IMG/VR virus record: IMGVR_UViG_3300012936_000001
Location: 103,119 to 167,118 of that record
Reading direction: 5' to 3' (one strand)
Source: a virus
Length of the DNA: 64,000 bases
The first letter of the stretch is position 1, and each line of letters starts with the position of its first letter. Position numbers and translations under genes: made by a program. Below the pieces are notes generated by a model that worked only from the letters and a program-made list of their open reading frames with translations, was not told where the DNA came from and did no database searches. Positions 17,880 to 62,958 of the stretch are shown here, in pieces.

Positions 17880-18285
17880 ACCAGAATGGGATAAGATATG
17901 GACGGACTTCGCAAAGTTGATCTCTACTCGTTCAACAGATCCGACTTTCCAGGTAGGGTGTTGTATCGTGACACAAGACAATACTCAGGTACTCGCTATC
18001 GGATATAACGGAGACCACAAAGGTGGACCGAACGAGAGAGAATCAATGGAGCCTGGCCATTCGGGATTTATTCATGCAGAGATTAACGCTCTTATTAAGA
18101 TGGATTATAATAATCCAAAGAAGAAAACAATATATCTCACCTTATCTCCATGCAAATCCTGCTGTAAGGCCATAATTAATGGTGGTATAGATAGAGTAGT
18201 GTACACAACCGAGTACCGGGAAACATCTGGAATAGAATTATTACAAAAGGCAGGAATTGAGGTCGTATACTATTCTGCCGAATAA
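17869..18285 (+). CDS. dCMP deaminase
   Basis: IGYNG, HAEINA, PCKSC; GTG start after an SD. Confidence 0.9.
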   Translation: MPTRPEWDKIWTDFAKLISTRSTDPTFQVGCCIVTQDNTQVLAIGYNGDHKGGPNERESMEPGHSGFIHAEINALIKMDYNNPKKKTIYLTLSPCKSCCKAIINGGIDRVVYTTEYRETSGIELLQKAGIEVVYYSAE

Positions 18286-18314
18286 TTATTTGAAAGAATA
18301 GGAGAAATCAAGCG

Positions 18315-21300
18315 ATGTTACTAGATGAACTTTTAGAAAGCGTAATAATGGCAGCGCATGCATTGAACGAAAAAGATGCATCAAAAAGTCTAGACGAAGT
18401 AGAAGGAGATGAGGAGAAAGACGACTTTGGTGAATTTAATAAGTACATTGACAGAATAACAAAGAATTCAAAAAGTTTGGAAGATTTGCTCAAAAAGGAA
18501 CTCGGCGACAATGAAGGTGCTAAAAGTATCCTTTTGCCTTTTGAAACTACGCGAACACTCTTGTTAGGGACACAGGAAACGATAGCGAATCCAAAAACAG
18601 ATTTTCAAGATCCAAAAAATGAAAATGCGAAACAAATAAATAGCACTTTGCAAAATTTTATGATCAATCTTGTATCACTGCGAAGAGGGCTGGAAAGTCT
18701 AGCGGAATGGTCAAAAGGCTTAGATAAGATAGGAATTAAGGACGCACAATTTAATAAGTTGTTTGGTGTTGTTCAAAAAGAATCAATGATTCATAAATCT
18801 AGTCTTTCTTCTCTGCTATTAGAAATGAAATCACCAGAAGACTATCCTGCTGGATCTATTGCAAAAGCGATTGCAAACCTTGCCAATTTCAACGTTAATC
18901 TAAAAGACGTTTTTGACCCAGACGGAAGAGAACATAAATTAGTAATCAATTATTTTAAGAAGCTGGATGACAACATTGGCAAATTAGAAAAGACGCTAGG
19001 AAACAAAAAAGCACTTGAAAGCGAAATTGATAAATTTTTCAAAACAAGACCAGGCCAAGGTGTCATTGCAGCTGCCTGGTCCTTTGCTAAGTCAATGGTG
19101 GCATCCTTTTTTAAGCCGGCACCTATTGGCGATGGAACAATTCTTAATGCTAGGCAAGCCATGGGATCAATAGAAGAACCATCAGGCCTCTTGTTTCTTA
19201 GTCCAAAGCAGATCATAGATATAAACGAGAAGGTCAACACTGGTCTCAAGGACATGAAGAAGAATGTCTCTATCGTGCGGGACATGCTCGCATTCGGCGG
19301 AAAAGACGCAGACAGAATCCAGGCATACATCAAGGATAACGAAATAGAGGCCGACGATTATCTAGAAGATCTAGATGCAAATATAGACTGGGACAAAGAA
19401 AAAGACTACAAGAAGCTAAAAGCGGCAATGATATCGTCAGACTATTATGGAGAATCCTATCAGGTTCAAAAAAATCTAATACACAAGAACACGATGCAAA
19501 ATCTTTTGTTCGAAGACGCAGAAGAATTTGTCGATCTTTGGAATCAATTTCTCTCAAAAGGTAACAACATAACCCAGAAGACAAAGGAAGCCGGGACCCT
19601 CCTGTTTCCGAAATTATCAGATGATTATGACTGGAGTGGTGAAACCCTAAATTGGGAAAAGAAAAAAGAGCCCGACATGGCTTTTCCGCAAGGTAGCCTT
19701 TATCCCTCCTCTGACGACCCAGAATTTCGAGCGATATTGAAAAAGGTTGAGAAGAAAGAACCTCTCTCAGACGAAGACCAAAATAAATTAAAGGAATTAG
19801 TGAAGGAAGAACCATATAAAAAAGCAGATCTCGCACAGGCCTTCATCGAAGACAAAGGTAATGATATCAATAACGCAGATTTGGCCAATCAGATTGCTGA
19901 CATTATTACGTTAGGTAACGATGAAGTATTGCTGTCTGCGGTTGACGATGACAGAGAGCAGATCAACAAAACCTTAGAAGAAAAAGGAATCCCGTATGCA
20001 ATCAACGCAGAAAAGGATGATGACGGCAAACCCATTGCAATTAGATTGATAAGGGTTGAAGATAAGCCAGAGCGCGGAATAAATCTGCCCGCCGGTAAGA
20101 CAAAGGTCTCAAGGGCTGCGATGAAGGCTTTATTTCCCGATAAAGATGAGATAATCACCCAAGCACTCGCCGCGTTAGGAAATTACGAATTGATCGAATC
20201 TAATAAATTGCTGCACAGAAATTCACTAGCCCAGTTATTATCCGAAGAAAAACAATCGCTATTAAAGTACATTGTTTCTTATTATAGCAAGAACGCTATT
20301 GATCAAACCCAAAAACACTGGGAAAATACCCCGGGAGCCAAAGACGCGGCACTGAAAAGACTGAACAATATGCTAATACAAAAGAAAGATGTGCTCAAGG
20401 AAAAAGGAATTGATCTTGATGAAGAAATAGAGATTGCCGAAGAAGAGCCAGGTGAAACAACGATTACACTAGAGCCTGGTAAATACCCTGATCCAAAAAG
20501 CGCCGAGGAGGAACTTGACAGCTCACCTGTGACTGATGATCTACCAACCGCGGAAAAGAAGAAAGTAGCGTCAGTCATGGTTGGTGTATCACAGAAAGAA
20601 ACAACGCCTCAAGAAGCTAACGCTGAATTGTTTGGCACTGGCTTGGGAGTAATGACCCCCACAGGTAAACCCTTGGAGTTGGTCGAAGAGGAACCTCCTC
20701 CACCCAAGCCGAAGAAGGAAGAAGGGCAGCCGGTACCCGATGAGAAAGAAACATTTTATTATTCTTTTACACCGCTGAACACATTTAGGCCTACCAAGAC
20801 CAAAATCGCTACAGTTGAAGAAATCATAGCCAATATGAAGAACGATAGCATCGCGTCGCATATGGTTTATTTATCTGCAAAAGATGGTTGGTCTATGAAC
20901 ACTTTTGGCTCCTTTGACAACGACTGGCCTCAGGTCCTAGGAGGATCCTCGGATGCTGCCTCTGAGAAAAAAGGCGTCTCAAAACAAAAAATCAAATCCC
21001 TATTCAGCAACACTACTTCGAAATTCTACGACGACCTTGAATATAAATATACCGGCAAAGACGGCAGCAACAGCAAACGTGATATGGGCAGTTCGTTGAT
21101 GATGCATATTCCAAAAGCTATTGCTTCAGCAACCGGCCTGGAGCTGACAGAATCTCGCCTTATTCACAAGTCAAGTCTATCATCTCTTCTCAGAGAGGCT
21201 TCTGTTTTTGATAAAATATTTGATGAGTTTCATTCTAGTTTTGCTAAGAAAGCGCAAGATAAAGATGGAGGAATATTCAAAAAAGAACCATTGAAAAAAT

Positions 21301-22253
21301 TCCTAAGAGGCATTTTTGAGAAGGAAGAATTAAAATCCGTCATGAAAGACTTAGGGGTCGACGATGTTTTCTCCGGTGGAACAGATGATGAAGAACCGGA
21401 AGCAGACGTTCAACCAGTGAGTGTGCCAAAAACTGGCAGCCCAAAGGAGGATGTGGAGAAAGACCTCAACAAAGCCGGGATCCAAAATTCGAAAGAAGTT
21501 GCTAATGACCTTGATGCGGATGGAGATGGCAATATAACGTCCAAAGAAGCTGAGGATCTTGCAAAGAAAAAGGAGGACATAACCGCCAAACCTGGGGAAG
21601 ACGATTCAACTAATCTTATTGTGGAACCTTCCGCCGAACAGAAAGATTCGGGCACAAAGATAAGCAGAAAAACAGACTTGAGAGATTTCACCGAAGATGA
21701 ACAAGATACCATCGAACTGGCGCTTGCCGACATATTAGATGGAGATATTGTAACAGAATCCAGCCTACACAAACTTGGACTAGGCATTTTACTTGAAAAC
21801 AAAGCAAACGATTTTGTAGAGCTGTTATTTGATTCTGGCCTAGAAGCTGAGCAGGTTCAAACCATTATCAAGAAGATAAAAGACAACAAGGATCTTAGCG
21901 ACAAATTAAAGAAGCTCGGCATAGATATGGAAGAGACATCAGAAAAATCTATTCCAGGCGTAACTATTCGACCGAAATTTATGGACCTCATTAATAAAAA
22001 GAAAAAACAACTAGCAACCCAAGCATTCACGCGAGATCCAGAAGAGGGTGGTATAAAAGGTCTTCCTGGGGTCAATGTATTGAAGAAAATGTTCGGGGAC
22101 CCGACACAAGTTGCTAATATCGAAAAGACTTATAACTATATTGCCAAGAAAACAGTAAAGGCTCCAATCTTTCCAGAAGGAAAGCGCAGCCCCAAATCAA
22201 AACTTATTCACAAACGTAGTCTTACCGAAGCATTATTTAGTGACGATGACTAG
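18315..22253 (+). CDS. 1312-aa acidic protein with six internal linker repeats (putative virion polyprotein)
   Basis: Six copies of the motif ..[LM][IL]H[KR].S[LM]..LL.E. Confidence 0.8.
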   Translation: MLLDELLESVIMAAHALNEKDASKSLDEVEGDEEKDDFGEFNKYIDRITKNSKSLEDLLKKELGDNEGAKSILLPFETTRTLLLGTQETIANPKTDFQDPKNENAKQINSTLQNFMINLVSLRRGLESLAEWSKGLDKIGIKDAQFNKLFGVVQKESMIHKSSLSSLLLEMKSPEDYPAGSIAKAIANLANFNVNLKDVFDPDGREHKLVINYFKKLDDNIGKLEKTLGNKKALESEIDKFFKTRPGQGVIAAAWSFAKSMVASFFKPAPIGDGTILNARQAMGSIEEPSGLLFLSPKQIIDINEKVNTGLKDMKKNVSIVRDMLAFGGKDADRIQAYIKDNEIEADDYLEDLDANIDWDKEKDYKKLKAAMISSDYYGESYQVQKNLIHKNTMQNLLFEDAEEFVDLWNQFLSKGNNITQKTKEAGTLLFPKLSDDYDWSGETLNWEKKKEPDMAFPQGSLYPSSDDPEFRAILKKVEKKEPLSDEDQNKLKELVKEEPYKKADLAQAFIEDKGNDINNADLANQIADIITLGNDEVLLSAVDDDREQINKTLEEKGIPYAINAEKDDDGKPIAIRLIRVEDKPERGINLPAGKTKVSRAAMKALFPDKDEIITQALAALGNYELIESNKLLHRNSLAQLLSEEKQSLLKYIVSYYSKNAIDQTQKHWENTPGAKDAALKRLNNMLIQKKDVLKEKGIDLDEEIEIAEEEPGETTITLEPGKYPDPKSAEEELDSSPVTDDLPTAEKKKVASVMVGVSQKETTPQEANAELFGTGLGVMTPTGKPLELVEEEPPPPKPKKEEGQPVPDEKETFYYSFTPLNTFRPTKTKIATVEEIIANMKNDSIASHMVYLSAKDGWSMNTFGSFDNDWPQVLGGSSDAASEKKGVSKQKIKSLFSNTTSKFYDDLEYKYTGKDGSNSKRDMGSSLMMHIPKAIASATGLELTESRLIHKSSLSSLLREASVFDKIFDEFHSSFAKKAQDKDGGIFKKEPLKKFLRGIFEKEELKSVMKDLGVDDVFSGGTDDEEPEADVQPVSVPKTGSPKEDVEKDLNKAGIQNSKEVANDLDADGDGNITSKEAEDLAKKKEDITAKPGEDDSTNLIVEPSAEQKDSGTKISRKTDLRDFTEDEQDTIELALADILDGDIVTESSLHKLGLGILLENKANDFVELLFDSGLEAEQVQTIIKKIKDNKDLSDKLKKLGIDMEETSEKSIPGVTIRPKFMDLINKKKKQLATQAFTRDPEEGGIKGLPGVNVLKKMFGDPTQVANIEKTYNYIAKKTVKAPIFPEGKRSPKSKLIHKRSLTEALFSDDD

Positions 22254-22262
22254 GAGAAATAA

Positions 22263-22721
22263 ATGAAAAAGAAACTCACAGAAAAAAGAATCATCAACGC
22301 TATACGTAAAGTGTATCGCCAAAGACTGGCAGAAGTCGCCATAGCAGCCGGGCTAGAAGAAGCAGACATGTATGACAAAAGAGGCAACATGATTCTCTCT
22401 CAAGGATTGAAAGTTCGACACAAGGCTTCCGGATATGAATATACTGTAGACCATGTAGAGGGCGACGGAGACGGCGCAGTTATATATCTTCGGCACCCAG
22501 ACCAACCAAGATTCGAAGCAAGCGATTCAAACATGACAATATCAGAATCCGGAGTTTCCGTCGATCTATCCGGTGTAGATTTACAGAGAGTCGCTGGCAA
22601 AAAGAAAATGCCAAAGGTTCAGCTGAAAAAGAAACCAGATGCCGGAGAGTTGAAAATACCAAAGTCTTCTCTTTTGGCGGTAAGTAAAGAAGAATTCGAC
22701 AAAGCATATGAGGTAGAATAA
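22263..22721 (+). CDS. Hypothetical protein with a basic leader
   Basis: MKKKLTEKRIINAIRKVYRQRLAE; SD present. Confidence 0.75.
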   Translation: MKKKLTEKRIINAIRKVYRQRLAEVAIAAGLEEADMYDKRGNMILSQGLKVRHKASGYEYTVDHVEGDGDGAVIYLRHPDQPRFEASDSNMTISESGVSVDLSGVDLQRVAGKKKMPKVQLKKKPDAGELKIPKSSLLAVSKEEFDKAYEVE

Positions 22722-23407
22722 TGGATAGAACAATTAAAAAAATTATCAAAGAGACGTTAGCCGTGAAAGAAAAAGGCCCGATAAACGAGTCTTATGTTAC
22801 TCGAGCAAAGAAATATGATTTACCTACAGAACTATTGTCCGAAAAGAATAAGAAGGCACACCAGGAGCTCTTAGCCAACTATGTGGAATCTCTCAATGCG
22901 GTCTCTGCGAAACTAGACACTGTATCTCGAGACGATGCTAGCCTAAACCATTCTTCGATTCGTTCACTAAAAATTGATGAAACATATAATGCCAACGCTG
23001 CTTATCTTCATGCCCTTTTCTTCCAGAACATCTCAGACCTCAAGTCAGTTATCACGATGGATTCTCTTACTTTTATCAGGATCGAAAGAGATTTTGGATC
23101 TTTTGATGCGTGGCAAAAAGATTTTATTGCAACATGTCTTTCAGCTAGAAATGGATGGGGACTATTGGTATACAATATGTTCCTAGGAAGATACATGAAC
23201 GTGGTCGTAGACCTCCATTCTCTCAACGTTCCGATTGCTTCTATTCCTATCTTGATTATGGATTGTTGGGAACATTCATACTACAGAGATTATCTTAAAG
23301 ATCGCAAGACATATGTGTATGCTATGATGAAAGAAATAAATTGGGAAGTAGTAGAAAAAAGAGTCCGTAAAGCAGAAAAGATCGCCAAGATTCAGGAGAA
23401 AGGATAA
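22721..23407 (+). CDS. Fe/Mn superoxide dismutase with an N-terminal tag
   Basis: H..YV, LHALFF, IERDFGSFDAW, GWGLL, MDCWEHSYY. Confidence 0.85.
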   Translation: MDRTIKKIIKETLAVKEKGPINESYVTRAKKYDLPTELLSEKNKKAHQELLANYVESLNAVSAKLDTVSRDDASLNHSSIRSLKIDETYNANAAYLHALFFQNISDLKSVITMDSLTFIRIERDFGSFDAWQKDFIATCLSARNGWGLLVYNMFLGRYMNVVVDLHSLNVPIASIPILIMDCWEHSYYRDYLKDRKTYVYAMMKEINWEVVEKRVRKAEKIAKIQEKG

Positions 23408-24114
23408 TGAGATATAAGAGGAATAGGCTTTGGGAACTTGCAGGTATAGTTCATCGATCCGAACTTCTTACCGAAGGAGGTGACGATGCCGGTGACGACA
23501 AAGAACTAGATGCTGGCGGTGACGACGATGCAGGCGGAGATGATGCAGAAGATTCCGGTGGCGATGATCTTTTCGGCGGAGGAGACGAAGGCGGCGATGA
23601 GGGTGAATCTGGAGGCGATAAGGAAGGTGAAGAAAAAGAAGAAGAGGAGCCTGCCGAAGTTCTCACAGCATCAGAGATTTCTCGATACGGCACCGGAGAG
23701 TTTGAGACCGAGATCGATGAAATCTTTATGACTATTTTTGATCAGGCGAAAGGCCGAGCAAAAGTAAGATCGGAAAAATCTATTGGTTATCCTGGAAAAA
23801 TAGATTTGGAGGAATCAAGAAAATATAGCCTGAGAGTGCTTCTGGAAGAAGCAGACCCAAATTCTGAAGAGTTTGATTTAGTCTTTTTTACAAATGAAAT
23901 AGCAAGATACATAAACAACTATACTACTCTGCTAGACGTAGAAGGAATTTTATTTTCGAAGGCAAAGCAATTTTTATTAAATCAGCGATCGAAAGAAGAA
24001 GCAAATACGTTTGAAGAACTTCTAGCAAGAGATCATGGTCTTAACTTTTCTCATGACGACATATACAAAAAACCACTACCACCGGAGGCTGCAGGAGCCA
24101 AGGCTTCATCATAA
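23407..24114 (+). CDS. Acidic Gly/Asp-rich tagged protein
   Basis: RLWELAGI..LLTE leader, GGDD low-complexity region, internal ESRKYSLRVLLEE. Confidence 0.75.
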   Translation: MRYKRNRLWELAGIVHRSELLTEGGDDAGDDKELDAGGDDDAGGDDAEDSGGDDLFGGGDEGGDEGESGGDKEGEEKEEEEPAEVLTASEISRYGTGEFETEIDEIFMTIFDQAKGRAKVRSEKSIGYPGKIDLEESRKYSLRVLLEEADPNSEEFDLVFFTNEIARYINNYTTLLDVEGILFSKAKQFLLNQRSKEEANTFEELLARDHGLNFSHDDIYKKPLPPEAAGAKASS

Positions 24115-29329: not shown

Positions 29330-30478
29330 GTGAATCTTAAGAGCCTAAGAAAAATAATTTTGGAGACAATCAATGAAAAAAATACTCCCTCCAAAAGAAA
29401 AAACCGCAAAAAATATTTAAATAAAGTATTGTCAGAAGCTAGCCAAATATTATTAGAAGAAGAACAGGCTGACTATAAGACAATAGAAGACAAAATAAGA
29501 GGATTTAACTATGCTCTGAAAGATGGCGCGGAGGAAACAAGAAGTTTTCTTGATAACGAAGGAAAGAGTTCTACTTTTCGGGATTTCCTAAAGTCCGGAG
29601 AAGACGATGGATCAGCCGATGATGACGTTGTCAAGATATCAGAAGCTCCCCAGACCCTAGAATCTCTTCAGCCAAGTCAAGGATTTATTGATGCGGGTCA
29701 ATCTGTCTCATTCTCTTTCTGCAATTACAAATTTGGATTCAAGCCACCTCTCATGGGCGGTCCATATACTGCAAAAGACCCCCTGAGTTGTGCTGGCGAC
29801 GTTATACTCGACGGTCACCATAGATGGTCCGGCGGTGTAGCCGTAAATCCAAAAGCGCAGATAAACACTCGAGATTTTGGAGTAAAAGGAGACCCGGGTC
29901 AAAAATTAGCAAAAATGCAAGCCGCGGTTGCATCTCAGACTCCTGCAAATCAGCCTATTCCTTCGAAAAGCGGAGATAAGTCTGGTGACATCATGGGTAA
30001 AAGTGCAGCTGAACTCGAACCTATCTTGACAAATATGTTAGGAAAAGCAGCGAGTGAATTTGATGGCAAAGCCGATGATGAAATAATTCTTGGGGATAAG
30101 TTTATTAATGATCTTAAGGCCGATACTGGAAACCGTGCTCAACTCAAGAGTGTTTTTGGAATAACTGAAGATGACCTAAATAACGTAAAACCTGAACAGA
30201 CATACGCTTCTTTCGATGCAATAGACTGTCCGGTAAGAAAAAAGATTATTGCAGGATCTAGTAAAAATCTTGCATCTATGAGAAAGCAAGCAGCTGGAAC
30301 CCCAAAAGAACGTGACGACATGCCTCAATTAGACCACGATGACATCGGAGGAGATGCTGGATTTGCACAGATTCGGAGAGATCTCGCAAAAGGTAGAATA
30401 AATATCGAGTCTCCTTATGTCAACGAAAATAAACAATTGAAAAGATGGAATAAATTAGCTGGTCTTCTTAAGGACTAA
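29330..30478 (+). CDS. ParB/Srx-fold-like protein with N- and C-terminal tags
   Basis: LQPSQ..ILDGHHRW; ends with NENKQLKRWNKLAGLLKD. Confidence 0.7.
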   Translation: MNLKSLRKIILETINEKNTPSKRKNRKKYLNKVLSEASQILLEEEQADYKTIEDKIRGFNYALKDGAEETRSFLDNEGKSSTFRDFLKSGEDDGSADDDVVKISEAPQTLESLQPSQGFIDAGQSVSFSFCNYKFGFKPPLMGGPYTAKDPLSCAGDVILDGHHRWSGGVAVNPKAQINTRDFGVKGDPGQKLAKMQAAVASQTPANQPIPSKSGDKSGDIMGKSAAELEPILTNMLGKAASEFDGKADDEIILGDKFINDLKADTGNRAQLKSVFGITEDDLNNVKPEQTYASFDAIDCPVRKKIIAGSSKNLASMRKQAAGTPKERDDMPQLDHDDIGGDAGFAQIRRDLAKGRINIESPYVNENKQLKRWNKLAGLLKD

Positions 30479-30490
30479 TTGGAGAAAAAA

Positions 30491-31771
30491 ATGAACATAA
30501 GACAACTTAGAAAATTGGTATTGGAAACTGTATCGGAAGAACGTCGACGACCATCTAGAAGGAAGCGTAGAGCGATCAAAGAGAACCGCTCAAAGAAACT
30601 TGCAAGAATTCTTCTTGAGGCAGATAAAGAATTAAAAGAACAAGAGGAAGGCGGTGCTGCGCCGGCAGCCACTGCAAACTATGCGGACATGGAACTTTCG
30701 ATGGTTGGTCTTGATGCAGGAAATGTTTATGATACAGTAACCGATTCATCTGAGGGTGACTTAAATGATCTTCAGAAAAATATAATTGCTCAGGATAAGA
30801 ATATGCCGAAAGACAAAGCAGGTTTCAGTGCATATGCAAAGGAACAACTGCCAGAAAAGGAAGAATTTATCAAGCGTTATAATGAAGTCGTCGCAAAAGT
30901 AAAAAGCGATGGTGGACGTGGTTTTCATAAGGCATACATGCCGGCCCTCGAAGGAGATGATGCTCCTCAAGTCAGCCAAGCGCTTACGGACGAAAATGCA
31001 CCTTTTGGAATTGATGTCGACGCTTCTCAAGGAAAGTTTGCTGATATTCTTGCAAAGGCCAAGAACATTCAGATAGATGGAAAGAATCTGCTTGATATGA
31101 CTGCTGCAGAGATGGCACAGAAAAAAGATCAGATCAAGACCGCCATGAAAGAAAATTCATGGTTTGCTGGCGATCTTCTACTTGAATTTTCCCCGCATGA
31201 TTCTTTCCCATGGCCTGGCGCAAAGAAAGCAATCGACGGAGCTAAAACTCTTGGAAAGGGCGCACCTATTCTAAAAGCAGATCAAATAACCGGCCCTGCT
31301 GCTCTGTTTCTTACTCTTGGGCATTTTGACGATGCTCCCGATAAGCTCGAACTCCCAAGTGAACCTGGTTCCGTTACAGCTGGGCAAGCGAAGCCTACCC
31401 AAACAAACATTCAGCTTGCGAAGTCTCTCAGGTTTGCCCTTAATAACATGTACGGTAAATGGGACACGGAAGGTATGGGCGGCGCGTATGCCACAAAGGA
31501 CGGAGATATTCTTGATGGCCATCATCGTTGGAGTTCTCAATATCTTAGAAACGGCGCGGCCGCTGACTTGCCTGGATTGTACAAGATCCAAGCTCCATTT
31601 TCTCAGGATCTCCTAAAAATGCTTACCGCCATTGGAAACGCAATGGGGCGTGGAACAAAAGAAGGTGAGCCTGATGCAAAGAAGGAAGCTGCATGGCATA
31701 AGGGAAATGTTATCAACGAAAACGCAGTTATCAATCGCTGGAACAAGCTTGCTGGCTTGTTGAAAGACTAA
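30491..31771 (+). CDS. ParB/Srx-fold-like protein with N- and C-terminal tags (paralog)
   Basis: AKPTQ..ILDGHHRW; ends with NENAVINRWNKLAGLLKD. Confidence 0.7.
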   Translation: MNIRQLRKLVLETVSEERRRPSRRKRRAIKENRSKKLARILLEADKELKEQEEGGAAPAATANYADMELSMVGLDAGNVYDTVTDSSEGDLNDLQKNIIAQDKNMPKDKAGFSAYAKEQLPEKEEFIKRYNEVVAKVKSDGGRGFHKAYMPALEGDDAPQVSQALTDENAPFGIDVDASQGKFADILAKAKNIQIDGKNLLDMTAAEMAQKKDQIKTAMKENSWFAGDLLLEFSPHDSFPWPGAKKAIDGAKTLGKGAPILKADQITGPAALFLTLGHFDDAPDKLELPSEPGSVTAGQAKPTQTNIQLAKSLRFALNNMYGKWDTEGMGGAYATKDGDILDGHHRWSSQYLRNGAAADLPGLYKIQAPFSQDLLKMLTAIGNAMGRGTKEGEPDAKKEAAWHKGNVINENAVINRWNKLAGLLKD

Positions 31772-59058: not shown

Positions 59059-59793
59059 ATGAGACTAACAAAAAGACAACTGAAAAGAATAATCAGAGAA
59101 GAGTATTCAAGGCTCAGAAGTCGTGGCTTGATCAAAGAAATGTATGAAGAATATTATCCCGAAGACGAATTCGATGCTTATGAACACGTAGAAAATACTA
59201 TGGGTGACGGGTCTCCCGATGCTCCAGGCATGTATGATGGTCTTACCGAAGATCAAATTGATCAGGTCCTTGATGTTCTTGACGAGATGAGAGAAGAAGA
59301 GGAAAGACGTCACGGGTACAGGGATGAGATGATGGACTATGACCCATCCCCTATGACGAACTATGATTCTTTCGGCTTTGCAACCTCAAGACCAGGTGGT
59401 CACATGGGCGAAAGCCGAAGAAGGAGAAGAACTCTGCGAGAAAGCATCGGGTCTACAGTTCTTGTAGAGATAGAAGAACTTCTTCTCGATGAACTCGGAG
59501 ATGACATTGATGCAAAGATATCAATGGCCAAGGCAGTTGCGCTTATAAAATCAAATATGCCGTATGTAATGAAAGGACAATCGGCAAAGGACATTGAGGA
59601 TTTTATATATAGTCACAACGATTTTTACCATGACATCGTAATAGACCCAATTTCTCGATCGGTTATGTTAAAACAAATATTTGATGACGACGATGAAACA
59701 ATTAGTTCACCCTATCATTACTCAGATTCACCTATACACCGCGGAAGCGTCGGAGTCAAAGCTGGCCGCAATCCTTTCCCGGGAGAATACTAA
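59059..59793 (+). CDS. Leader-tagged array gene 1
   Basis: MRLTKRQLKRIIREEYSRLRSRGLIKE. Confidence 0.88.
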   Translation: MRLTKRQLKRIIREEYSRLRSRGLIKEMYEEYYPEDEFDAYEHVENTMGDGSPDAPGMYDGLTEDQIDQVLDVLDEMREEEERRHGYRDEMMDYDPSPMTNYDSFGFATSRPGGHMGESRRRRRTLRESIGSTVLVEIEELLLDELGDDIDAKISMAKAVALIKSNMPYVMKGQSAKDIEDFIYSHNDFYHDIVIDPISRSVMLKQIFDDDDETISSPYHYSDSPIHRGSVGVKAGRNPFPGEY

Positions 59794-59794
59794 G

Positions 59795-60208
59795 ATGAGA
59801 ATCACAAAAAGACAACTCAAAAGAATCATCCGGGAAGAATACCAAAACTTAAGAGAGAAAGGCCTTATCAGTGAGATGAGCCGAAGGCCTCGTCCTTCCA
59901 ATGTTGACCGTCAGGCAATGTATAGTGGATACGGTGGGCCACCCGCTGTCTTCAATGCTCTTTCTATGGCCATAGCAAAAGTCATGAACATGAAAGGAGG
60001 AATGTGGATTCAAAAGAAAAGAAATCCTCTCCGAAGTCTCAAGAATGCTGTAAATACTATTATGATTAAGGATCCTGTTGTCTCCGACGAGTATTTTGAA
60101 ATTAGAGATAACCCCGCCTATGACTTTGGTCTACAAGAAATCATCGATCAATTGGTCATGGATGAAAGGGAAATAAAAAGAATCATATTGGACGTCGTAT
60201 TATCCTAG
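59795..60208 (+). CDS. Leader-tagged array gene 2
   Basis: MRITKRQLKRIIREEYQNLREKGLISE; true start is 59795 after GGAGAA. Confidence 0.88.
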   Translation: MRITKRQLKRIIREEYQNLREKGLISEMSRRPRPSNVDRQAMYSGYGGPPAVFNALSMAIAKVMNMKGGMWIQKKRNPLRSLKNAVNTIMIKDPVVSDEYFEIRDNPAYDFGLQEIIDQLVMDEREIKRIILDVVLS

Positions 60209-60218
60209 GAGCAAATAC

Positions 60219-60623
60219 ATGAAAATCACAAAAAGACAATTAAAAAGAATTATCAGAGAAGAATACTCTAGACTTAAACGAAGAGGCTTGATCAAAGAAA
60301 GTTTCGGGATGATGGATTCATATGGAAACCCAGACGAATACATCACAAACATGGAGATGGGCATAGGTTATTCCGATGCCGAAGAGATGCAAATAGACGA
60401 CTTGGACAAGATATTTGATGCCGTTGCAGACATTCAACGAAAAAATTTCAACTATGAAGATCTTGCGATGGCACCAGATGAAGTCATTCAACGTCTAATC
60501 ATGGAGTCAGAGCCTATTTTCGAATTGGCAATGGAAGCAACATACGGAGAGGGTTATGATCAATCTCCACTTTCCGATAGATGGCGGGGTTTTCTTATAG
60601 CTCTACTTTCTATGGGCCGATAA
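60219..60623 (+). CDS. Leader-tagged array gene 3
   Basis: MKITKRQLKRIIREEYSRLKRRGLIKE. Confidence 0.88.
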   Translation: MKITKRQLKRIIREEYSRLKRRGLIKESFGMMDSYGNPDEYITNMEMGIGYSDAEEMQIDDLDKIFDAVADIQRKNFNYEDLAMAPDEVIQRLIMESEPIFELAMEATYGEGYDQSPLSDRWRGFLIALLSMGR

Positions 60624-60643
60624 CAATTTATTTTGAGAAAAAA

Positions 60644-61132
60644 ATGAGAATAACAAAAAGACAATTAAAAAGAATTATTAGAGAAGAGTATTCTAGACTC
60701 AAACGAAGAGGGCTTATTCGCGAGATGAGAGGCGGAGGGCACTATGATTCAATAATGAGTGCTAACCCAGAATTTGAACTGGACCCTGGAGAGTTGCAAT
60801 CAAAAATGGCTCAGGCCCCCATGAAAGCTCGTAAATTAGCATCTGATCCAAGGATCCAAGCTGCGGAAGGAATGTTGGCACAACACGAACTCGGAGGACG
60901 GTTGATGCCTTTGCTCGACCAACTTTTGGAATCAGGCATTGTAACAGGTGATGACCAAATGACAGAAGCATTGTGTGAGATTCTTGGAGAGGCCGGCCTC
61001 AGTACGACTGTATATAATTATAGTTATGATGACCCATACGGCCCTTTTATTTCTGGACATAATATAGTTTGGATAAAACTTTCTGGAAACCAGGCTCTTG
61101 TCATGATCGACGATTATCGCGGACCTAGATAA
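60644..61132 (+). CDS. Leader-tagged array gene 4
   Basis: MRITKRQLKRIIREEYSRLKRRGLIRE. Confidence 0.88.
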   Translation: MRITKRQLKRIIREEYSRLKRRGLIREMRGGGHYDSIMSANPEFELDPGELQSKMAQAPMKARKLASDPRIQAAEGMLAQHELGGRLMPLLDQLLESGIVTGDDQMTEALCEILGEAGLSTTVYNYSYDDPYGPFISGHNIVWIKLSGNQALVMIDDYRGPR

Positions 61133-61155
61133 CAACAACTTAATTGGAGAAAAAA

Positions 61156-61800
61156 ATGAGAATATCAAAAAGACAACTTAAAAGAATAATCAGAGAAGAG
61201 TATTCGAAATTGAAGAGAAGAGGCCTTCTCCGTGAGATGGCCGGTGGACGACTGCGAGTAGGGACGAAGATTGGAAAAAACCATATTGGCCCGTCTGCAG
61301 CTGAATTTCCTGGGCTTCATACAATCGGCGAGCTCATGCACGGAAACTCTGTTGATGGAACCGGTTTTTATATCGCGCAGGATGATGAGGGAAATTATTA
61401 TCTGCCAGATCAGTATGGAGATGAGCCCTTTGGAGATGAGATCGAAGACATCCTATATTCAATGGTTCCTTCGAGAAAGAAAAAGAAAAAGCTGAAGAAA
61501 AAAGGCAAGAAAGCTATGAGAGGCCGTTCCTCGATGAGAGCGCCAATGGACCTCGGAAGGCACTATGTTGCTCCTGCAGATCCTGATGATGCGCAAGAGG
61601 CTATGGAACTTGCCATGGAATTTGGAATACCAAGTCCTCAAGTCGTTGGTCAAGTTGGTGGATACGGCAGCACGTATGTTATCCTAACTGATGGAATGGG
61701 TAAATATTATCTTCCTTTGACGGCAACAGAAGACGACGATCTTAGCGTTCAAGAACTTATTGAAATGCTCGACGATGCCAAATCCGAGGGCGATCTTTAA
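61156..61800 (+). CDS. Leader-tagged array gene 5
   Basis: MRISKRQLKRIIREEYSKLKRRGLLRE. Confidence 0.88.
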   Translation: MRISKRQLKRIIREEYSKLKRRGLLREMAGGRLRVGTKIGKNHIGPSAAEFPGLHTIGELMHGNSVDGTGFYIAQDDEGNYYLPDQYGDEPFGDEIEDILYSMVPSRKKKKKLKKKGKKAMRGRSSMRAPMDLGRHYVAPADPDDAQEAMELAMEFGIPSPQVVGQVGGYGSTYVILTDGMGKYYLPLTATEDDDLSVQELIEMLDDAKSEGDL

Positions 61801-61893: not shown

Positions 61894-62958
61894 ATGATAG
61901 TAAGTCCAATTAACAATCACGCGAATCGCGTCTATTCTCACCGGACAGGCTGGGCGAGAATGTGGGCAAACTGCCTGGGAACAACACTAGGCTTCAACGC
62001 AGACTGGTCCAATGAACCCAAGGTATATCTTGAACATGGCATGGAGTGGAAAGTAGGTGCTAAGTCTATTAAATATTTCTTGGCTTCTGAGAAACAACTC
62101 AAAGAACTTGCCGAGGAAAACAAAAAGAGAGTTGCAGACGGCAAACCAAAAAAAGAATCTTCGTGGGAAAAGCTTGCGAAAAAAGCAAAGATGTTCGAGA
62201 ACTTTGAAGGACAACTATTCTCTCTCGACATCGACTGTCCTATGTACGGAACATTACTCAAGACAAGAATCAAACCATGGGTTCCTCAGGTCTTTAAGAA
62301 TCTCGACTTTGATAAGATTGATCAGGTCTGCAAAAGAGCGACAACGATAAAACAAGAAGACCTGAAAAGGGGATTTGTCGTTCTTGGAGATTCTCATTCC
62401 TTATCTGCTTGGCATGAAGACGCAGCTCTTTGTCGCAACGATGGCCAGACACTGAATGGAGCTATCAGCCGTGGGTTCAGTACATGGCTTCAGCCTTTCG
62501 TGGACGCTGGTTCAAAGATGAGCAAGCTTCGCCTCTACTTCGGCAACATTGATATACGTCATCACATCTGTCGATTGGCTACGACGAAAGAAGAACAGCT
62601 GACGATGACAAAAGATCTCGTACGACGATACTTTGCAGAGATTCAGAAGACGATAAAACAATATGATATTACTCACGTCGAAATAGTTGGAGCCTTGCCT
62701 ATCGAGAATGAATCTCGTCGACTTCCAAAGACTGGATACCATAAGGGAAAACCTTTTTGGGGAACATGGCAAGAAAGAAATGACGTTGCAGAAGCTTTCA
62801 ATGCTTTATGCAAAGGAATGTGCGAACGACTTTCAGGATACACTTATATTGGCTGGAAAGATTCATACAAGAACGAAAAAGGTGAACTTGACTTTGAGTA
62901 CATGGAAAGACCACAGTCGGTTCACATCTCACCCGAGCATTACATGTGGAGTATATAA
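61894..62958 (+). CDS. SGNH-like (GDSH) phage protein, probably linked to DNA modification
   Basis: LGDSHS, FGNIDIRHH, PIENESRRLPKTGYHKGKPFWG, SVHISP. Confidence 0.55.
   Translation: MIVSPINNHANRVYSHRTGWARMWANCLGTTLGFNADWSNEPKVYLEHGMEWKVGAKSIKYFLASEKQLKELAEENKKRVADGKPKKESSWEKLAKKAKMFENFEGQLFSLDIDCPMYGTLLKTRIKPWVPQVFKNLDFDKIDQVCKRATTIKQEDLKRGFVVLGDSHSLSAWHEDAALCRNDGQTLNGAISRGFSTWLQPFVDAGSKMSKLRLYFGNIDIRHHICRLATTKEEQLTMTKDLVRRYFAEIQKTIKQYDITHVEIVGALPIENESRRLPKTGYHKGKPFWGTWQERNDVAEAFNALCKGMCERLSGYTYIGWKDSYKNEKGELDFEYMERPQSVHISPEHYMWSI

Follow-up and report, generated by a model that had tools for sequence, protein, structure and literature searches.

Processing by a prohead protease in tailed phages normally takes off a terminal propeptide or destroys a scaffold, and to our knowledge tailed phages are not usually thought to produce true polyproteins. 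In phage T4, the internal proteins IPI, IPII and IPIII and the protein Alt are targeted into the prohead core by peptides ending in (L/I)-x-E, which are then removed, while the products stay as internal or ejected proteins (PMC5694885, PMC9958956). Alt is trimmed at both ends, at ITE-6 and LTE-619 (PMC5694885), the first 65 N-terminal residues of gp23 are removed, and gp22, gp67 and gp68 are broken down to peptides (PMC9958956). Here we describe P0001, an open reading frame (ORF) of 1312 amino acids (aa) at positions 18315..22253 of a 64,000-nucleotide (nt) stretch of viral DNA (hereafter the window), which forms the final 64 kb, positions 103,119 to 167,118, of the 167,118-bp IMG/VR record IMGVR_UViG_3300012936_000001 (G000). 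P0001 and all its features discussed below lie on the plus strand. The reading that we favour, with a probability of about 0.5, is that P0001 would be expressed late, lie inside the head and be processed there as a polyprotein by the prohead protease.

Repeated cassettes in P0001

The first-pass annotation of the window had described P0001 as punctuated by linker repeats, and this was borne out by five clear copies of the motif h-[IL]-H-[KR]-x-[ST]-[LM]-x-x-[LA]-L (h, hydrophobic residue), at aa 158, 388, 632, 949 and 1297, together with a sixth, degenerate copy, shorter by one residue, at aa 1149-1161. The repetition exceeds shuffle expectation: the best 13-mer self-pair of P0001 reaches a BLOSUM62 score of 50 (shuffle mean 34.4, shuffle maximum 44) and 26 self-pairs of this length score at least 30 (shuffle mean 4.9, maximum 14). 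Each cassette is 13-20 residues long and comprises an x-x-E/S site (a slash marks a predicted cut), then an amphipathic helix of the form h-[IL]-H-[KR]-x-S-L-x-x-L-L, then an L-L-x-E/ site. The brackets named in the same annotation, E-S upstream and LLxE downstream, are indeed present at all five internal cassettes, and the upstream site takes the form [LV]-x-E/S in three of the five.

P0001 opens with a mini-leader, MLLDELLE/S (18315..18338), which itself ends in an h-x-E/S site. Cassette 1 (QKE/SMIHKSSLSSLLLE/M, S157-E170, 18783..18824) is kept in the close relative P0002 and recurs as QKES FNFIHKSSLASLLLE/A in the ortholog from the related record G002, which is discussed below. It is followed by cassette 2 (YGE/SYQVQKNLIHKNTMQNLLFE/D, S381-E400, 19455..19514), of which 21 of 22 residues are identical in the relative P0004, by cassette 3 (LIE/SNKLLHRNSLAQLLSE/E, S629-E644, 20199..20246), by cassette 4 (LTE/SRLIHKSSLSSLLRE/A, S947-E961, 21153..21197), the end of which matches the predicted maturation site LLRE/A of the capsid protein of this phage, and by the degenerate cassette 5 (VTE/SSLHKLGLGILLE/N, S1149-E1161, 21759..21797). 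The last motif copy, KLIHKRSLTEALFSDDD, lies within a C-terminal element, FPE/GKRSPKSKLIHKRSLTE/ALFSDDD (22179..22250), which occupies the place of the RWxxLAG[IL] tail of the orthologs.

The peptide IHKSSLSSLL is common to copies 1 and 4, with synonymous differences at 7 of its 10 codons, which points to selection on the peptide and not to a recent DNA repeat. The strict linker motif has no further occurrence in the whole 167-kb record. Homologs of P0001 detectable by sequence are close Tara Oceans fragments only, all from surface samples: P0002 (84% identity) spans linker 1, P0004 (88% identity) spans linker 2 and P0005 (73% identity) retains the C-terminal copy. Judged by the independent assemblies across linkers 1 and 2, the single-ORF fusion is genuine and not an assembly artefact. 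It is highly improbable that composition or chance in a low-complexity ORF accounts for the repeat, or that P0001 is an artefactual fusion of neighbouring genes. P0001 is rich in K, E and D, belongs to no family and is poorly predicted, as such an explanation would have it, but the shuffle tests, the synonymous divergence between identical peptide copies, the conservation of cassettes in distant positional orthologs and the independent assemblies all speak against it.

The segments between the cassettes had been described as showing no obvious similarity to each other, and this also stands, since the best BLASTP match between any two of them has E = 0.16; none resembles other proteins of the phage either. 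Segment 1 (aa 9-156, about 16 kDa, 18339..18782) is predicted to be helical and has no family. Segment 2 (aa 171-380, about 23 kDa, 18825..19454) is the sole one with a distant homolog, P0003 (32% identity), encoded on a 566-nt Tara contig. Segment 3 (aa 401-628, about 25 kDa, 19515..20198) has a net charge of -17, segment 4 (aa 645-946, about 33 kDa, 20247..21152) contains a Pro/Lys/Glu-rich stretch, and segment 5 (aa 962-1148, about 21 kDa, 21198..21758) has a net charge of -22 and a weak EF-hand-like loop. The latter, DLDADGDGNITSKEAE at window positions 21507-21554 (aa 1065-1080), fits the canonical 12-residue EF-hand calcium loop, although its Pfam EF-hand_1 match (E = 0.1) falls below the cut-off. 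The last, segment 6 (aa 1162-1288, about 14 kDa, 21798..22178), with a net charge of about +6, is 73% identical in P0005.

Searches with these sequences returned little. Pfam gave no family for the whole of P0001 at E <= 0.01 and none above cut-off for any segment at E <= 1, PHROG gave no family either for P0001 or for any single segment, and tblastn against 50,697 phage records found no match. A word-based protein search for relatives of near-equal length returned the query alone, ESM Atlas yielded no usable match, and scans of IMG/VR with P0001 or with a segment-2 alignment as query detected no relatives. AlphaFold2 models had low confidence, with a mean predicted local distance difference test (pLDDT) value of 41 for aa 1-655 and 40 for aa 620-1312; the best-modelled part is segment 1, with pLDDT 60-78 over roughly aa 40-130. 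The linkers all lie where confidence is low and the prediction mostly helical, as does most of P0001.

Predicted protease sites and the T4-type head module

CheckV estimates the completeness of the record at 62%, so the full genome is probably about 270 kb, that of an uncultured marine T4-like jumbo phage of which the record would be a fragment. A T4-type head module is encoded in it, comprising a large terminase, a portal, a Peptidase_S77 prohead protease and a Gp23-family major capsid protein. The protease, encoded at G000 62058-62684, is of the gp21 type (PF03420, 92.6 bits, above cut-off; PHROG 207, E = 2e-50). The capsid protein falls in PHROG 138 (major head protein) and its homologs carry PF07068; its nearest cultured relatives are remote, from T4-like phages that include Flavobacterium phage immuto (44% identity), and a 265-kb ENA contig has a capsid gene 82% identical to that of the record. 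In total, 7965 capsid homologs were retrieved at E <= 1e-20, mainly from marine metagenomes. The phage is T4-like and not phiKZ-like.

The T4 site FLTE65/A aligns with AQLLRE/ANTLG of the capsid protein of this phage, and the site is conserved in 60 homologs. Given this homology-mapped LLRE/A site, the prohead protease very likely accepts L-L-x-E, the sequence found at the downstream end of every internal cassette of P0001. Linker 4 ends in SLLRE/AS, that is, in the same way as the capsid site. The predicted 59-residue propeptide of the capsid protein (G000:C1:66950-68920) also contains KLTE/G, RLTE/K and VLLE/N ahead of LLRE/A, all of them conserved in the 60 homologs, and these further h-x-E sites suggest that the propeptide is cut into small pieces. 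On the upstream side of the P0001 cassettes, the conserved Ser after the Glu recalls the P1' serine preference of the protease of phage SPN3US (PMC10052503). A reading of the cassette motif as a clamp-binding or single-stranded DNA-binding protein (SSB)-like tail was also considered and found no support, the motif being flanked by protease-type sites.

When h-x-E-[SAG] sites were counted over the whole record, the most enriched protein (18 sites versus 4.3 expected) was a 571-aa ORF (G000:C1:65200-66915; L020:14201-15916) located directly upstream of the capsid gene, where T4 has gp22. This scaffold-position ORF is strongly charged, blocky and scaffold-like, and its enrichment in sites fits a scaffold that would be shredded by the protease. 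P0001 contains seven such sites, about as many as its composition predicts, all of them located at MLLDELLE/S, in the cassettes or in the C-terminal element, a distribution that is partly circular because E/S helped to define the cassettes. No such circularity affects the depletion within the segments: none of these sites was found in their 1159 residues versus 5.2 expected (P(0) = 0.006), which favours discrete surviving products over wholesale degradation.

Binding of the cassettes to the capsid protein was approached by a complex prediction that paired the capsid protein (56-row alignment) with aa 930-975 of P0001; it gave scores of 0.00 and 0.00 and carries no weight either way.

Positional orthologs, their C-terminal tail and upstream motifs

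About ten small ORFs of the record begin with the leader KRQLKRIIxEEY, and a DNA pattern made for it led to related jumbo records (273 and 289 kb). In G002 the gene order matches that around P0001: DnaE, thymidylate synthase, dUTPase, DHH phosphoesterase and dCMP deaminase genes are followed by an 882-aa ORF, P0006, at the position of P0001, and the gene after P0006 is 63% identical to the gene after P0001. In a BLASTP comparison of P0001 with P0006 the cassettes alone align (QKES FNFIHKSSLASLLLE/A, KES KFFHHAGFKNLLTE/A and LES IHLNSLNSLLVE/E). A direct search of the related records G001-G004 with P0001 had found nothing because the orthologs are too diverged, and they were found by synteny instead. 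Further loci were collected through the conserved downstream neighbour and not through P0001 itself, which gave positional orthologs at 13 IMG/VR loci and 36 metagenome loci, from marine viral and metagenome contigs. The complete ones, about 30 of them distinct, are 458-1036 aa long, and the family occupies a fixed position, flanked by the dCMP deaminase gene on one side and by a conserved 150-aa gene on the other. One record, L056 (IMGVR_UViG_3300025872_000072), has the dCMP deaminase gene abutting the 150-aa neighbour, with no P0001-like gene between them, so the family is dispensable or relocated in some lineages.

A typical family member has a leader at the N-terminus, a body that varies and an RWxxLAG[IL] tail at the C-terminus, and the longer ones contain cassettes as well, such as QTES YNLVHRKSLSNLLLE/E, LEAGNLHHRASLTSLLYE/E, LSES YRSSLSFLLLE/Q and KNES FNRRASLKNLLLE/L. 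A hidden Markov model (HMM) of the five copies of P0001, run against 227,000 residues, had ortholog cassettes as its top matches (15.8, 12.5 and 8.1 bits) and matched no other protein of the same phage. Since no segment of P0001 matches any ortholog body, the cassettes are the sole conserved element between P0001 and the orthologs. Judged by these alignments, the P0001 family is evolving much faster outside its cassettes than the neighbouring genes and the capsid protein.

Every positional ortholog ends in h-x-E/S followed by RWxxLAG[ILVM] and a few residues, and the RWxxLAG tail also terminates the scaffold-position protein in this record, in G002 and in one ENA contig. In the form RWxKLAG[IL]xK(D), it ends two further proteins that carry N-terminal [LI]-x-E leaders (window 29330-30478 and 30479-31771), and the same is seen in G002. 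The tail core L-A-G-L-L-K-D follows the pattern of the linker core L-S-S-L-L-R-E, and the tail is a candidate for a shared procapsid-binding peptide. Within the family, a linker-type copy, KLIHKRSLTE[AS]LFSDDD, stands in place of the tail in just two members, P0001 and its close relative P0005.

The tail that the orthologs share with the scaffold-position protein also bears on an unlikely explanation of P0001, namely that it is an auxiliary scaffold or core protein, brought into the prohead by the same motifs and cut by the protease, whose fragments would be expelled or degraded as assembly filler and would yield no mature head proteins. P0001 is highly charged, mostly helical or of low model confidence, fast-evolving and of variable length within its family, all of which are typical scaffold features, and the degradation of T4 gp22, gp67 and gp68 provides a precedent (PMC9958956). 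However, the absence of h-x-E-[SAG] sites from the segments, set against their density in the scaffold-position protein, suggests that the segments are spared shredding, and a separate scaffold candidate already adjoins the capsid gene. In addition, lengths in the family run from 458 to 1312 aa, against a capsid protein that remains 62-97% identical, which argues against a size-determining role.

A promoter-like sequence, ATAATTAT (18282..18289), lies 33 nt before the ATG of P0001 and is followed by a ribosome-binding site, AGGAG (18300..18304). The most enriched 8-mer upstream of gene starts is TAGGAGAA, and the pattern ATA[ACT]TTA[TA] is found 18-50 nt before 16 gene starts in the record versus 2.2 expected. 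The genes that it precedes include those of the portal, the scaffold-position ORF, the sheath and other tail proteins, P0001 and leader-bearing genes; examples are at G000 positions 59213, 65200 and 73247 and at window positions 18282 and 29290. The pattern is a candidate late promoter distinct from TATAAATA of T4. Of 33 ortholog loci, 24 also carry it ahead of the ortholog gene, mostly in the form ATAATTAT at 28-29 nt before the ATG.

The gene itself starts at G000 position 121433, outside the interval from the protease gene to the capsid gene (capsid gene start at G000 66950), and its upstream neighbours are those of DnaE, thymidylate synthase, DHH phosphoesterase and dCMP deaminase. This order would suit a non-virion protein, for example an infection or replication hub, in which the amphipathic helices would be uncleaved docking sites for partners and the Glu residues at their ends structural; the linkers are predicted to be helical and the evidence for cleavage is indirect. 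We nevertheless regard a hub of this kind as quite improbable, given the promoter-like motif that P0001 has in common with structural genes and that is conserved upstream of the orthologs, the presence of the ortholog tail on the scaffold-position protein, the retention of E/S and LLxE on both flanks of the helix, in agreement with the capsid maturation site, and the [LI]-x-E leaders of the downstream genes.

P0001 is the first in a run of genes whose products open with basic helices terminated by [LI]-x-E. In most orthologs the N-terminus is a linker-like leader that ends in a consensus site (MLISRIHRSMNRVLE/G, MSIHKIQRSMEMILE/G or similar) and is longer than MLLDELLE/S of P0001. Genome-wide, the core pattern h-x-x-h-h-x-E is concentrated at N-termini, with 29 of 97 matches in the first 45 residues. 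The idea that the linkers are homologous copies of the MKITKRQLKRIIxE leader was dropped, an HMM of this leader family having no linker matches.

Several other genes carry elements of this type. A homolog of Fe/Mn superoxide dismutase (window 22721-23407; Sod_Fe_C, E = 1e-22) opens with the leader-like MDRTIKKIIKE/T, which is kept in relatives as MNDETIKKTIRD and MDKTLKEMIAE, and the protein may be an encapsidated enzyme. The product of the third gene downstream of P0001 (window 23407-24114) starts with MRYKRNRLWELAGIVHRSELLTE/GGDD, in which a tail-like R..L.ELAGI and a linker-like IVHRS..LLxE are followed by an acidic Gly/Asp run; this N-terminus is conserved in G001, G002 and G005. Arrays of small genes open with MK[IL]TKRQLKRIIREE[YK] and then diverge: five lie at window 59059-61800 and about 17 in G002 (L016:5526-11395), where one ORF of 231 aa (L016:5526-6221) contains two leaders in one frame, the second from a possible GTG start.

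Predicted processing of P0001 and comparison with known systems

In the processing that we favour for P0001, the cassette helices would dock the precursor in the assembling prohead core, as the capsid-targeting sequence (CTS) does in T4, and the gp21-type (S77) protease would then cut on both sides of each helix, so that small peptides would be excised. About six products, of about 16, 23, 25, 33, 21 and 14 kDa, five of them acidic, would be left inside the head, perhaps as ejection proteins. The targeting peptides could be N-terminal, C-terminal or internal, each with a protease-type site on every side that faces a body, and for this reason internal peptides would have two sites. Such extreme divergence among the bodies would be in keeping with a role in conflict with the host, as argued for packaged polyvalent proteins (PMC5512222). 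The first-pass annotation had taken each linker for an assembly handle and double-cleavage cassette and P0001 for the source of about six mature head proteins, a proposal that the sequence supports in part: in its favour are the S77 protease, the LLRE/A capsid site, the confinement of sites to the cassettes, the retention of cassettes in positional orthologs, the occurrence of the ortholog tail on the scaffold-position protein and the promoter-like motif of structural genes.

Several observations weigh against this head-internal polyprotein. The upstream sites QKE/S and YGE/S are devoid of the hydrophobic P3 residue of the T4 consensus, and looser [LI][LIVF]xE sites occur inside the segments, at aa 498, 696, 792, 971 and 1104, so that the true fragment pattern is uncertain; the partial circularity of the site distribution has been pointed out above. 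The gene lies 54 kb away from the head module, beside nucleotide-metabolism genes, and P0001 does not have the RWxxLAG tail that ties its orthologs to the scaffold-position protein. The quality of the AlphaFold2 models is too low for domain boundaries to be set against the linkers. Finally, because the leader-family HMM fails to detect the linkers, the relation between leaders and linkers is one of pattern and not of demonstrable homology.

A broader proposal, which we put forward tentatively and consider somewhat less likely than the processing of P0001 itself, is that marine T4-like jumbo phages use a modular grammar of tagging, packing and excision, in which short amphipathic peptides (leaders, linkers and RWxxLAG tails), each facing its cargo across a site for the prohead protease, would load hypervariable cargo into capsids and several cargoes could be fused into one polyprotein with double-cut internal tags. 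P0001 would be the most extreme example, its acidic, fast-evolving products being effectors ejected in an arms race with the host. If the processing favoured here for P0001 is confirmed, a conserved family in a very abundant clade of marine phages would have unrelated cargo modules joined by excisable targeting cassettes, the T4 capsid-targeting principle would extend to internal, double-cut tags, and the loading and diversification of head-internal, possibly ejected, proteins would be explained. Defined short peptides (leader, linker and tail) would also become available for seeking the binding partner in the prohead, and the predicted N-termini would be targets for metaproteomics.

The S77 protease, maturation cleavage after Glu and targeting propeptides are known parts. 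What appears to be new is the use of repeated, doubly flanked internal cassettes to join unrelated bodies, and the tail in common with the scaffold-position protein, neither of which is described in the literature cited here.

Polyvalent proteins of phages and conjugative elements (Iyer et al. 2017, PMC5512222) are, like P0001, long, multi-module proteins, and packaging in the capsid, delivery to the host, occasional proteolytic processing and fast modular evolution have been proposed for them, as they are here for P0001. They are defined by recognisable effector domains and often an embedded MPTase peptidase, whereas P0001 has no recognisable domain and its processing would take place in trans, by the prohead protease. 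The gp22-type core protein of T4 is charged, helical, and enters the prohead as a protease substrate, and P0001 can be compared with it through its own charge and predicted helices and through the tail that its orthologs share with the scaffold-position protein of this phage. In the present phage, however, it is the scaffold-position protein that is dense in cut sites, while the segments of P0001 have none and P0001 itself is not encoded beside the capsid gene and is without the tail.

In the giant phages phiKZ, 201phi2-1 and SPN3US, inner-body and ejection proteins are cut by gp175/gp245; many head proteins are cleaved after Glu at x-X-E, and some propeptides are cut at several sites (PMC10052503, PMC5694885). 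In SPN3US, with the exception of self-cleavage of the protease, all substrate cleavages give N-terminal propeptides (PMC10052503). Neither a repeated, excisable cassette inside the chain nor a chain that yields several mature products is described there, unlike what is proposed for P0001.

A further parallel is with the CTS proteins (IPI, IPII and IPIII) and Alt of T4, a phage that, like this one, has a T4-type head module with an S77 protease. P0001 has no sequence homology to the T4 internal proteins or to Alt. In T4, separate small genes encode proteins that each bear one CTS of 10-20 aa at the N-terminus, whereas in P0001 the peptides are internal and C-terminal within one chain of 1312 aa, in addition to the short MLLDELLE/S, and the linkers differ from the CTS in their consensus, hIH[KR]xSLxxLLxE, and in having sites on both sides.

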